Shown here in pieces: positions 826 through 38,487 of a stretch of 38,526 nucleotides of DNA (its first letter is position 1; each line of letters opens with the position of its first letter). The stretch is taken from positions 1 through 38,526 of the forward strand of contig JBKBRF010000057.1 in assembly GCA_046292385.1 (NCBI GenBank). Reading direction: 5' to 3'. The position numbers and the translations under genes are program-made. The notes under the pieces were generated by a model. That model was given only the letters and a program-made list of their open reading frames with translations, was not told where the DNA came from and did no database searches. Source of the stretch: Armatimonadota bacterium (lineage in GTDB: Bacteria; Armatimonadota; SYMT01).

Positions 826-1310
826 CTCGCTTCCAGGTCGTCGTTGTCTCTCGTCCAGGTCATCTCGGGACGGGGCGCGGAGGAGGGAGTCTCGCTCGCT
901 TCACCGCTGTCAACCCCACCGTGAATAATAGCAAAAATCTGTTCGAAAATCAAGAGGAAAGCACCGCTCCCCAGGCACAAAATGCGGCAGAGGCTTCGAT
1001 TCCGAATTCGGCGCGGCAACCGGTCCGCCGGCTCCCTGCAACCCTCTCACAGCGCGGCTGATGCCGCAACCAAACCCTCGGCGGCTGGGGAGGGATTCTC
1101 TCGGCGAAAGCACCCTCTCTCCGAGGGTCCACCCCGCGCCCTCCCACCCCTACCGCCCGCAAGCGGGCACCCGGGTGGTCACGAGTGAACCCCTCCCGCT
1201 CTGCCTCCGGCAGTGCTTCCGGGCTTCACAGATCCCCACGTCCGGGAGCGCGAAGCCGGCCGTGCTGCACCGGCTTGAGGCAACCCGTCGGCGGCCGACC
1301 GTGCCCAGAC

Positions 1311-1611
1311 TAGAGGCGCCCGGAGGGTGCCAGTTGTGACCACCCCTGGCGAGGGGTGGTCGCTCGAAGGGCCGGGAGGCAGCCCGTGAGCTCCGCTGTC
1401 GGCACGGGTAACGCTTCCTGGCGCGGGAAGAGCTTCTCGGCGGGAGCTCCCGTAGCGGCCTGCTAACGGAGCGCAGCGGAGTGTGAAAAGGCCGCGGAGG
1501 GCCTTCGTCGCGGGAGGGCTGCTTCCCGGCACAAGGGCGCGGGGTCGGGTCGCGGGATCGAGGCTGCAGCTCGAAGAGAAGCAAAAGCGCCACACCACTG
1601 GCACCCTCCGG
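1311..1611 (+). ncRNA. Putative structured non-coding RNA or retroelement-like element, copy 1 (strand inferred)
   Basis: Colinear motifs and covarying hairpins shared with 38261-38440; 15-bp inverted repeat at 1320-1334 / 1597-1611; no credible ORF. Confidence 0.55.
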
Positions 1612-1839
1612 CTCCGCGACGCCCAGGCGCGCGATGACCGCGACCAGAATCTGCGCATCGCGGCAAGATTCCCACGGTGAGTAGTACAGAGGGGTGACAG
1701 CGCGGGAGAGTAGGAGATGCCGGGCGCGGAAGCGAACATTCCGCCCAACAGGGCGCGCGAGCGCCTACACTTGTATGCCGGGGTCCGGGCGGGCCCCGGC
1801 AGCGTCTAATACTCTGGAATTAGAAAGGAAGCTCCGCAG

Positions 1840-3132
1840 ATGAGCGGACATTCAAGCGGCCGGAGCGGCGCCGCGGTGGGCGCACAGCTCTCCGCGATGA
1901 TGTTCCTCCAGTTCTTCGTCTGGGGTGCCTGGTACGTCACCGTCGGCAACTTCATGACGGCGAACGGCATGGGGGACGGCGTGGCCTGGGCCTATTCGGT
2001 GGCGCCGATCGCGGCGATTATCTCGCCGTTCTTCCTCGGCATGGTGGCCGACCGCTTCTTCGCGACGGAGCGGGTGCTGGGGGTGCTGCACCTGCTCGGC
2101 GGCCTGATCCTCCTCGCGGCGCCGATGGTGGCCCAGGGCGGCGCGGCGGCGCAGACCACCTTCATCGTGGTGCTGCTGCTCTACGCGCTGTGCTACATGC
2201 CGACCCTCGGCCTGACCAACACCCTGGCGTTCCACAACGTGACCGACCAGGAGCGGCAGTTCCCGATGATCCGCGTCTTCGGGACCATCGGCTGGATCGC
2301 GGCGAACATCGTCGTCAGCAAGCTCCTGAAGGGCGACACCACGGCGGTCCAGTTCTACGTCGCCGGCGGCGCCAGCCTGGTGCTCGGCCTCTACAGCTTC
2401 GTGCTGCCGCACACCCCGCCGCCGGCGGCAGGCCGCGCGGTCACCGCGCGAGACGTGCTGGGACTCGACTCGCTGGCGCTGATGCGCAGCCCGGCGTTCT
2501 CGATCTTCATCGTCAGCTCGTTCCTGATCTGCATCCCGCTGGCGGCGTACTACTCGTTCGCGCCGATCTACGTCGGCACCGGCTTCGCCGATCCGGCCTT
2601 CAACATGTCGTTCGGGCAGATGTCCGAAATCTTCTTCATGCTGGTGATGCCGCTCTGCTTCGCGCGGCTCGGCGTGAAGTACATGCTGGTGGTCGGGATG
2701 CTGGCCTGGGTACTCCGCTACGGCCTCTTCGCCGCCGCCGCGCCCACCTTCGGGATGAGCAGCGCAGGCCTGACGCCCGCCCACTGGATGGTGCTCGGCG
2801 GCATCGTGCTCCACGGCATCTGCTACGACTTCTTCTTCGTGACGGGGCAGATCTACGTGGACAAGCGGGCGCCCGCCGCAATCCGCGGCCAGGCGCAGGG
2901 CTTCCTGGTGCTGGTGACGCAGGGCCTGGGAATGCTGATCGGTGCGCAGCTGACCGGGAAGATCAAGGAGGCGTACACGCAGGGCGACGTGGTCAACTGG
3001 CAGTCGCTCTGGATGATCGCCGCCATCGCGGCGGGGGTGGTGATGGTCGCGTTCTTCGCGCTCTTCCGCGACGACAGCAAGGCCGCCGAGCCGGTGCCGC
3101 CGGCCGGCACCGCCCCCGTGGGAGCCGAGTAG
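1840..3132 (+). CDS. MFS nucleoside:H+ symporter (NupG/XapB/YegT family)
   Basis: MMFLQFFVWGAW, FPMIRVFGTIGW, GQMSEIFF and LHGICYDFFFVTGQIYVD family motifs; about 12 hydrophobic segments; AAAGGA RBS. Confidence 0.93.
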   Translation: MSGHSSGRSGAAVGAQLSAMMFLQFFVWGAWYVTVGNFMTANGMGDGVAWAYSVAPIAAIISPFFLGMVADRFFATERVLGVLHLLGGLILLAAPMVAQGGAAAQTTFIVVLLLYALCYMPTLGLTNTLAFHNVTDQERQFPMIRVFGTIGWIAANIVVSKLLKGDTTAVQFYVAGGASLVLGLYSFVLPHTPPPAAGRAVTARDVLGLDSLALMRSPAFSIFIVSSFLICIPLAAYYSFAPIYVGTGFADPAFNMSFGQMSEIFFMLVMPLCFARLGVKYMLVVGMLAWVLRYGLFAAAAPTFGMSSAGLTPAHWMVLGGIVLHGICYDFFFVTGQIYVDKRAPAAIRGQAQGFLVLVTQGLGMLIGAQLTGKIKEAYTQGDVVNWQSLWMIAAIAAGVVMVAFFALFRDDSKAAEPVPPAGTAPVGAE

Positions 3133-38157: not shown

Positions 38158-38260
38158 GAGGAACGGACCTGAACGCGAAGGCGCGAAGAGCTGGAAGGAC
38201 GCGAAGAGAGCATCATCGGTTTGGGTGATGATGGCAGCGTCGTCACGAGGGGCAGGAACC

Positions 38261-38487
38261 TGAGTCCGGCGGAGCCGGACGCTTGTGCGCCCCCCTGGCG
38301 AGGGGGGCGAGCTTGAACGGAGGGAGCACTCCCGTGAGCCCTCTCACCTTAATGGCTCCGGCGCGGTGGCGCGGGATGAGGTTCCCGCTGCGAACGCAGA
38401 GACGGGCTGCTAGCCCAAGTTCCGCAGTTTGTAAGAAAGATTCAGCCTCGCGGTGGCTGCGAAGCATCAAGCGAGGCTGAATCTTTC
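38261..38487 (+). ncRNA. Putative structured non-coding RNA or retroelement-like element, copy 2 (may continue past the window end)
   Basis: Homologous to 1311-1490 with compensatory stem changes; followed by a 17-bp perfect hairpin at 38435-38487. Confidence 0.55.

Follow-up and report, generated by a model that had tools for sequence, protein, structure and literature searches.

A ~315-nt strand-specific fold recurs in many small units, gene-less and probably mobile, of an Armatimonadota genome

The window, by which we mean the whole 38,526-nt stretch of Armatimonadota DNA analyzed here, carries a structured, non-coding module near each of its ends. Copy 1 lies within a 1015-nt gap between a minus-strand open reading frame (ORF; 349-825) and a nucleoside:H+ symporter gene (1840-3132), with which it is co-oriented and 239 nt upstream of which it is found. 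Copy 2 starts 80 nt after a Gfo/Idh/MocA oxidoreductase gene and runs toward the end of the window. Copy 1 forms one arm of a composite unit whose parts, together with those of copy 2, are as follows.

1048-1689, no strand assigned: composite gene-less, probably mobile unit with left terminus E2, right terminus E1 and two head-to-head arms; similarity is lost sharply at both ends in the 15-locus alignment of the young A/B subfamily
1048-1143, minus strand: distal part of the partner (B-type) arm, which holds the outer closing helix's 3' strand, a tail, and terminus E2, close to whose end lies a short hairpin
1144-1239, minus strand: head of the B-type arm, comprising the 5' hairpin domain, the junction motif and helix P3 with an enlarged loop; nhmmer match at 1173-1239 (minus strand), HMM positions 9-75
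1240-1285, no strand assigned: spacer separating the heads and containing a small hairpin (1253-1276); conserved across the alignment of 15 composite units
1286-1601, plus strand: copy 1, a full A-type structured module; nhmmer 238.6 bits, covariance model R1 257.5 bits over model positions 1-315
1315-1331, plus strand: 5' hairpin of copy 1, with a GGA triloop
1334-1339, plus strand: junction UUGUGA of copy 1
1338-1361, plus strand: helix P3 of copy 1
1361-1365 with 1525-1529, plus strand: outer closing helix of copy 1
1371-1385 with 1506-1520, plus strand: helix P4 of copy 1
1455-1461 with 1489-1495, plus strand: helix P7 of copy 1
1602-1689, plus strand: tail of the A arm and terminus E1; arms of the near-end hairpin at ~1646-1652 and 1666-1671, end ...TACAG at 1685-1689
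38237-38410, plus strand: copy 2, a diverged module ending at about model position 200; 5' hairpin 38264-38280, TTGTG 38283-38287, then P3
38411-38526, plus strand: end of an IS-like repeat that interrupts copy 2 at (C)TAG, outside the module

Both ends of the composite unit recur elsewhere. The E2 end match at 1048-1075 marks the same end that closes solo B units, while the E1 end, reverse-complemented, opens them, and the A-arm sequence is kept up to E1 in 14 of the 15 aligned loci, beyond which the flanks differ. The partner B-type arm is incomplete: its ~185-nt core inside the closing helix is deleted exactly, directly after P3, and when the arm is read on the minus strand, P3 runs straight into the 3' strand of the closing helix (1143/1144). 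The deletion at this point resembles slippage across the stem base. No sigma-70-like promoter was found inside the window unit; a minus-strand site at 1608-1583 resembles a terminator. An AT-rich patch at 900-953, just outside the unit, contains two sigma-70-like promoter matches in divergent orientation, where shuffles predict 0.0, and probably serves the flanking genes as their native promoter region. One sequencing run, covered only as contigs and for a small share of its data, had no cover over 1336-1602, which says nothing either way about expression.

Copy 2 gave an nhmmer match at 38237-38418 (HMM positions 19-204; 57.2 bits with a 178-nt profile). Its module ends at about model position 200, where it is cut by the IS-like repeat that fills the window end. 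The 115-122-nt end of this repeat was found at 12 other contig ends with 98-100% identity and in one further internal copy with 86% identity; the flanks of these ends are otherwise unrelated and finish in TAG or CTAG. The repeat probably breaks the assembly in many places.

The original prediction was built on the likeness of two stretches, 1311-1490 and 38261-38440, and both are present at those positions. A MAFFT alignment of 1290-1500 with 38240-38450 was colinear with 77% column identity. The first predicted hairpin (1315-1331 in copy 1, 38264-38280 in copy 2) has the same GGA loop on a different stem, is followed in both copies by 2 nt and then TTGTG, and precedes a second hairpin (1338-1361 in copy 1) whose loop is identical in the two; the other conserved blocks that had been listed likewise occur in both. 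A two-sequence RNAalifold of the window copies yielded 49 pairs, 16 of them changed on both sides, and copy 2 matched a profile built from other copies with E=8.8e-15. The likeness of the two window copies is far above chance, and the proposal that they represent an uncatalogued, structure-constrained element, with covarying stems and fixed loops and spacing, is borne out. Other details were mistaken. What had been taken for a local GGG..CCC hairpin is one half of a 15-bp long-range helix, with 1371-1385 as its 5' strand and 1506-1520 as the partner; the unit is not confined to 1311-1490 but measures ~315 nt (1286-1601); and the element does not exist in two copies, since those in the window are two of ~150 in the genome.

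This number comes from the homolog search that had been proposed for the element, which returned ~150 copies in the genome as well as further ones in relatives and metagenome contigs. The genome searched comprises 7.04 Mb in 91 contigs, has a GC content of 69% and is 98% complete. BLAST followed by iterated nhmmer gave 90, 137 and 139 matches, 116 of the final 139 being 166-184 nt long with the 178-nt profile. Conservation extends ~35 nt further upstream and ~90 nt further downstream than this profile; an extended nhmmer profile produced 153 matches, and the covariance model R1 (315 positions) recognized 147 out of 150 scored candidates. The 119 full copies have a median pairwise identity of 63%. 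At ~150 copies of 315 nt in 7.04 Mb, the module accounts for ~0.7% of the genome. Local density varies: the 159-kb contig C8 holds 23 module matches, or 14 per 100 kb compared with ~2 genome-wide, and a stretch of contig C40 (13.6-40.0 kb) carries eight copies, all on the minus strand, five of which are antisense between plus-strand ORFs.

Beyond this genome, the module is patchily distributed. A BLAST search of copy 1 against 30 relatives gave only a 33-nt match at chance level, so a covariance model was needed to see homologs. R1 detected the module in three of the 151 genomes of the phylum that were sampled, 148 lacking it; within the order, three of eight genomes carry it, with 147, 13 and 8 copies. 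The two other carriers are different genera of the same family as this genome, and a congener of the 8-copy genome had no module found by R1. Five metagenome contigs also carry the module, as confirmed by R1. A motif-pattern scan of one genome per species gave true matches in only one Armatimonadota record; seven pattern matches outside Armatimonadota were rejected by the covariance model (best E=0.28), as were 16 of 22 metagenome pattern loci. Among the titles and abstract openings returned by a full-text literature search, we found nothing on such an element in Armatimonadota.

RNAalifold, applied to a MAFFT alignment of 76 copies, predicted P3, a 5-bp outer helix and the 15-bp helix P4, which enclose a core of ~190 nt with inner helices. 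The module is laid out as a 5' hairpin domain and P3, then a ~190-nt core closed by the 5-bp and 15-bp long-range helices. We examined pairing in the R1 alignment of 107 copies (80 from this genome, 20 from two relatives and 7 from metagenome contigs), where 96.6% of 4511 cells form standard pairs, compared with 79.6% in column shuffles, none of 500 of which reached the observed value, and 36-51% when partners were slid. In the same 107 copies, both sides have changed in 27 of 43 pairs, and in P4 in 14 of 15. The R1 alignment is fitted to the model, which favors these pairing figures, but the structure-blind MAFFT alignment gives the same helices. The 5' hairpin domain, with 15 pairs, is 80.6% paired over 76 rows versus 33-50% when slid, although in 14 of these rows the 5' domain is of another kind and the alignment is wrong at that point. 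UUGUGA forms a conserved junction between two helices within the fold (76 copies). C(GNA)G triloops recur: the 5' domains of 103 copies contain 61, and a single inner tip, examined in 97 copies, has 34. A pseudoknot scan for extra stacked pairs found only invariant columns.

The fold also has a strand. The consensus folds at -71.8 kcal/mol in the sense and -47.4 kcal/mol in the antisense direction, and G.U cells outnumber A.C cells 446 to 37, a 12:1 excess; since the sense strand folds better and G.U exceeds A.C, the fold belongs to one strand. Copy 1 itself has a minimum free energy of -172 kcal/mol (z=-3.4), with z=-1.8 for the opposite strand. Two positions are near-invariant U.G (104 of 106 and 105 of 106 cells), and both the fold and its unpaired motifs are conserved across three genera. 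The Rfam scan that had been called for was run and no family matches: Rfam 15 gave no match at gathering score over the whole window, the window copies searched at E up to 10 had a best score of 18 bits against a gathering score of 64, and seven further copies from three genomes or contigs had no match at E up to 0.1. A partial match to RNaseP-T on the tail of the partner arm (1050-1142, minus strand; 22.8 bits, gathering score 60) was cut by the search boundary and was rejected. We conclude that the module is a strand-specific multi-helix fold matching no catalogued RNA family.

We asked how single copies have changed since they diverged. Changes private to a single copy occur at 0.033 per paired site versus 0.065 per unpaired site. 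At paired sites, 184 of 224 private changes leave standard pairing intact, in 114 cases because the partner has a private change too, whereas only 95 of the 224 would pair had the partner stayed ancestral. Even in the 48 copies whose nearest relative is 15% or more away, 97.3% of cells still pair. Since private changes mostly keep pairs, the fold has been maintained along individual lineages. This maintenance is compatible both with selection at each locus and with selection on long-lived active lineages, and does not tell the two apart.

With ORFs called by a crude GC3-based caller, 123 of 134 copies lie outside the called ORFs. The four classes of orientation relative to the two neighboring genes are even (32/31/30/24). 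We tabulated the neighbors, as had been recommended, and found no reverse transcriptase, no link to an IS110 recombinase and no enriched gene family; recurring neighbors come from paralog families of 56, 64 and 12 members, only 6, 5 and 2 of which lie near a module. Neighbors in the two relatives are also functionally diverse. The unbiased orientation and the diversity of neighbors argue against a leader, riboswitch or terminator for particular genes. In one relative (contig C3, 830.6-836.9 kb), a type I-E CRISPR-cas locus has four co-oriented modules flanking its cas1-cas2 end; in this locus Cas1, Cas2 and Cas6e were recognized by Pfam and a 2.8-kb gene-free gap may be the array.

Where module matches are neighbors less than 1.5 kb apart, 32 of 36 are head to head. 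Identity between the two arms of a pair is as low as 50-63% in 25 of 26 pairs (0.77 in the exception), and a clade of 52 copies, with support of 1.0, contains one arm, and one only, of 25 of these 26; the pairs therefore join two deep subtypes. Units carry either one module or two, the latter being heterotypic and head to head, with each module pointing outward to a terminus. Some head-to-head pairs share P3 without a spacer. Head-to-head pairs also occur in one other genus, and co-oriented runs occur in another.

The boundaries of the units are clearest in young subfamilies, which share two sharp termini across three unit layouts. One young subfamily comprises ~15 loci at ~90% identity and gives a composite of ~830 nt with sharp ends, and seven solo B units bear the same two ends in another arrangement. 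The two termini are unrelated in sequence and non-inverted, each has a hairpin near its end and both finish on ACAG; this description of the ends covers the young A/B subfamilies only (15 composite loci, seven solo B units and the window ends). Between module and terminus lie 60-110 nt. Of 14 units, 13 read ACAG/A at the right junction. Target duplication is not visible, and the flanks have no direct repeat beyond the ACAG common to the ends. Every end match (27 E2 and 13 E1) adjoins either a module or the end of a contig, and in no case is a gene enclosed between unit termini; the assembly is in 91 contigs, and a master copy could be unassembled. Insertion into palindromes was not supported, as flank complementarity was 6% compared with 3% in controls. 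We infer mobility from the boundaries and the distribution alone because neither an empty site nor an insertion polymorphism was seen. The sharp common termini and the patchy, high copy number fit the earlier suggestion of a non-autonomous derivative of a mobile element.

Short tandem arrays of 7-9-nt repeats border units on contigs C16 (~77.3-77.8 kb), C14 (~58.3-58.9 kb), C10, C30 and C8. These arrays are sometimes inverted on the two sides, some contain the end motif ACAG, and they may be the target context of the units. On one metagenome contig (735-2250), two head-to-head modules overlap in a common P3 palindrome, and a Tn5-like insertion sequence has entered it, apparently flanked by AGCT left and right. 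With copy 2 of the window, this makes two cases of an insertion sequence landing inside a module.

We then considered which known mobile elements could account for the family. Three identities had been put forward originally, and none of them held. A group IIC intron was suggested by the motif after the hairpin, but no intron model matched in the window and reverse transcriptase (PF00078, RVT_1) had no match in the 98%-complete genome, with controls positive. Compared with the GUGYG that such introns have directly after a terminator-like hairpin, the motif reads GTGCG in copy 2 and GTGAC in copy 1, and across 76 copies it is the UUGUGA junction; it is more probably a junction inside the fold than an intron 5' end. 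A retron non-coding RNA is rejected on the same search, there being no adjacent retron reverse transcriptase and no RVT_1 anywhere in the genome. The bridge or guide RNA of an IS110-type element would sit in the non-coding end of an element encoding a DEDD recombinase, and no copy does: the genome has two PF01548 (IS110-type) genes, on contigs C91 and C6, and module matches at E up to 10 were absent from C91 and from within 2.5 kb of the C6 gene, while the relative with 13 modules has no PF01548 match.

An IS4/Tn5-like origin was raised by the metagenome contig just described, in which a 474-aa Tn5-type transposase gene lies exactly between two arms. It was rejected, the insertion being secondary: at their inner edges the arms have a ~20-nt inverted repeat resembling the one of the closest homologous insertion sequence, 10 homologous Tn5-like loci in other genomes have no module, and the Tn5-type transposase gene is absent from this genome. 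[quoted passage not shown] IS200/IS605-type ends, which are non-inverted, have near-end hairpins and cause no target duplication, are a feature present in the young A/B subfamilies, but a master copy with Y1 and/or TnpB and matching ends was not found in the 91-contig assembly, and TnpB had no match in the genome. An IS91-type search gave no match in the genome, nor did it in control genomes. Two good Y1 (RAYT-like) genes are present (C51:25920-26261 and C22:55627-55965), and the module profile had no match within 900 nt of either. Each of these genes is flanked by its own dispersed repeat, one with a 29-nt motif and the other a ~100-nt palindromic repeat found at dozens of loci, and both repeats are distinct from the module family. 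A REP/REPIN-RAYT system was rejected, as the module is not beside a RAYT gene and the arms of doublets are 0.50-0.63 identical in 25 of 26 pairs. Y1 genes number 5, 9 and 6 in the three module-bearing genomes of the order, and a genome with four Y1 matches has no module.

Starting from the observed family, its strand-specific fold, its unit boundaries and the lack of any link to neighboring genes, we think it somewhat better than an even bet that the window copies belong to a large family of gene-less and probably mobile small units, with the ~315-nt one-strand fold as their core and with a function as single-stranded nucleic acid. Spread would be by transposition in trans, through an enzyme acting from elsewhere, and the fold would be needed, as a single strand of fixed polarity, in the element's own life cycle. 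Against this explanation, no mobilizing enzyme was found among those searched, and simple decay of selfish copies does not predict maintenance of the fold along long single-copy lineages. By analogy with omega RNA in IS605 elements and bridge RNA in IS110 elements, there is about an even chance that the module is a transcribed RNA partner of the mobilizing enzyme. The guide RNAs of IS605 and IS110 elements point outward to the element terminus, and the outward-pointing modules here, along with the near-invariant U.G positions, the 12:1 ratio of G.U over A.C and the long-range helices, favor an RNA version to the extent that we hold it evenly poised. The window unit contains no promoter-like site, which counts against RNA, as does the sharing of P3 without a spacer in some pairs. 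A more speculative version, about which we are doubtful, would make the module a mobile structured RNA, serving as the guide, scaffold or catalyst partner of the moving enzyme or as a self-propagating RNA gene. If true, this would be a new RNA-bearing class of bacterial mobile element, with an outward-reading RNA copy at each end.

The same fold could instead act as single-stranded DNA, in IS200/IS605-like or REPIN-like units that are moved by a Y1 (HUH) transposase and whose module is seen by the enzyme or the replication fork; we regard this as a genuine possibility, if on the unlikely side. The non-inverted termini with near-end hairpins and no visible target duplication would be expected of such units, both ends finish on ACAG with ACAG/A at 13 of 14 right junctions, and all three module-bearing genomes of the order hold several Y1 genes (5, 9 and 6). 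The recurrent C(GNA)G triloops, which are very stable mini-hairpins in DNA, point the same way, as does the orientation of solo copies relative to GC skew (16/25 versus 23/12; Fisher p=0.024), which is weak since the copies are clustered and not independent; the triloops and this link fit an RNA reading as well. Eight copies are co-oriented over 27 kb irrespective of gene direction. However, no Y1 gene adjoins the module or shares its ends, and the genome with four Y1 matches has no module. Both ends of IS200/IS605 elements act on one strand, whereas the two folds of paired units are on opposite strands. Known HUH transposases read hairpins of ~20-40 nt, which the 190-nt multi-helix core exceeds, and the two near-invariant U.G positions suit RNA better.

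A third kind of explanation would place the function in the host, the copies being a family of non-coding RNA genes for a protein-binding or scaffold RNA that is merely copied around and whose role has nothing to do with mobility. Conservation of the fold and its unpaired motifs across three genera, upkeep of the fold along single-copy lineages and the low copy numbers of the two relatives, in pairs or short co-oriented runs, are what it would lead one to expect. We nevertheless think it improbable: ~150 redundant copies make host selection on each copy weak, a congener of one carrier and 148 of the 151 sampled genomes of the phylum lack the module, the window unit has no promoter-like site, and copies have been cut by insertion sequences while one arm has lost its core. 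The specific form of a CsrA sponge, suggested by the many GGA loops, was rejected, as CsrA had no match in the genome. Most unlikely of all is a cis-regulatory leader, riboswitch or terminator for adjacent genes, for which the candidate in the window would be the symporter gene at 1840. Copy 1 is co-oriented with this gene and 239 nt upstream of it, copies lie between co-oriented genes in one relative and the terminator-like site is present on the minus strand at 1608-1583, but orientation relative to both neighbors is unbiased (32/31/30/24), the neighbors are diverse with no family enriched, and several copies lie within co-directional gene runs in antisense orientation.

Bacterial genomes commonly contain dispersed hairpin repeats. 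It is unusual for small, probably mobile units to carry a multi-helix fold of 315 nt that is specific to one strand and remains intact at a sequence identity of 63%. If it is RNA, the module would represent a large RNA class, absent from current catalogs, from a phylum that has hardly been studied and could point to RNA-dependent DNA movement; if it is folded DNA, it would widen what single-strand transposons can carry. Either way, a covariance model and ~180 natural variants are at hand for work on structure and function.

Several known systems resemble the family in part. REP/REPIN elements (Bertels and Rainey 2011, PMC3116915), which come with RAYT (Y1) transposases, are likewise scattered between genes, contain no gene of their own and form hairpins. 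They are frequently arranged as inverted doublets, reach copy numbers in the hundreds and keep their stems by compensatory change, and this genome encodes RAYT-like genes. The module differs in being about ten times longer, with long-range helices, and in having arms from two deep subtypes that cannot pair with each other, and the RAYT-like genes here are flanked by other repeats and not by the module. IS200/IS605-derived PATEs share with the units their asymmetric ends, near-end hairpins, lack of inverted terminal repeats and lack of visible duplication. Like the module, the omega RNA that TnpB-bearing IS605 elements encode at their right end is a structured stretch of a few hundred nucleotides reading outward to the element end. 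In contrast to those elements, there is here no TnpB and no Y1 gene with the unit ends, two outward-facing modules lie on opposite strands and 60-110 nt separate module from terminus. HEARO, the omega RNA of IscB (RF02033), is a multi-copy structured RNA of mobile elements that often has no neighboring gene; the module is similarly a large structured non-coding element with many copies per genome, often with no gene beside it, but the Rfam scan gave no match for it and no associated nuclease gene was seen. Bacterial MITEs and the Correia, ERIC, BOX and RUP repeats (reviews: Delihas 2011, PMC3184786; 2024 MITE review, PMC10969869) are also short, gene-less, foldable intergenic repeats amplified in some lineages only. 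Compared with such MITEs and mosaic repeats, the module units have neither terminal inverted repeats nor target duplication, and their fold is strand-specific and conserved at 63% median identity and across genera.
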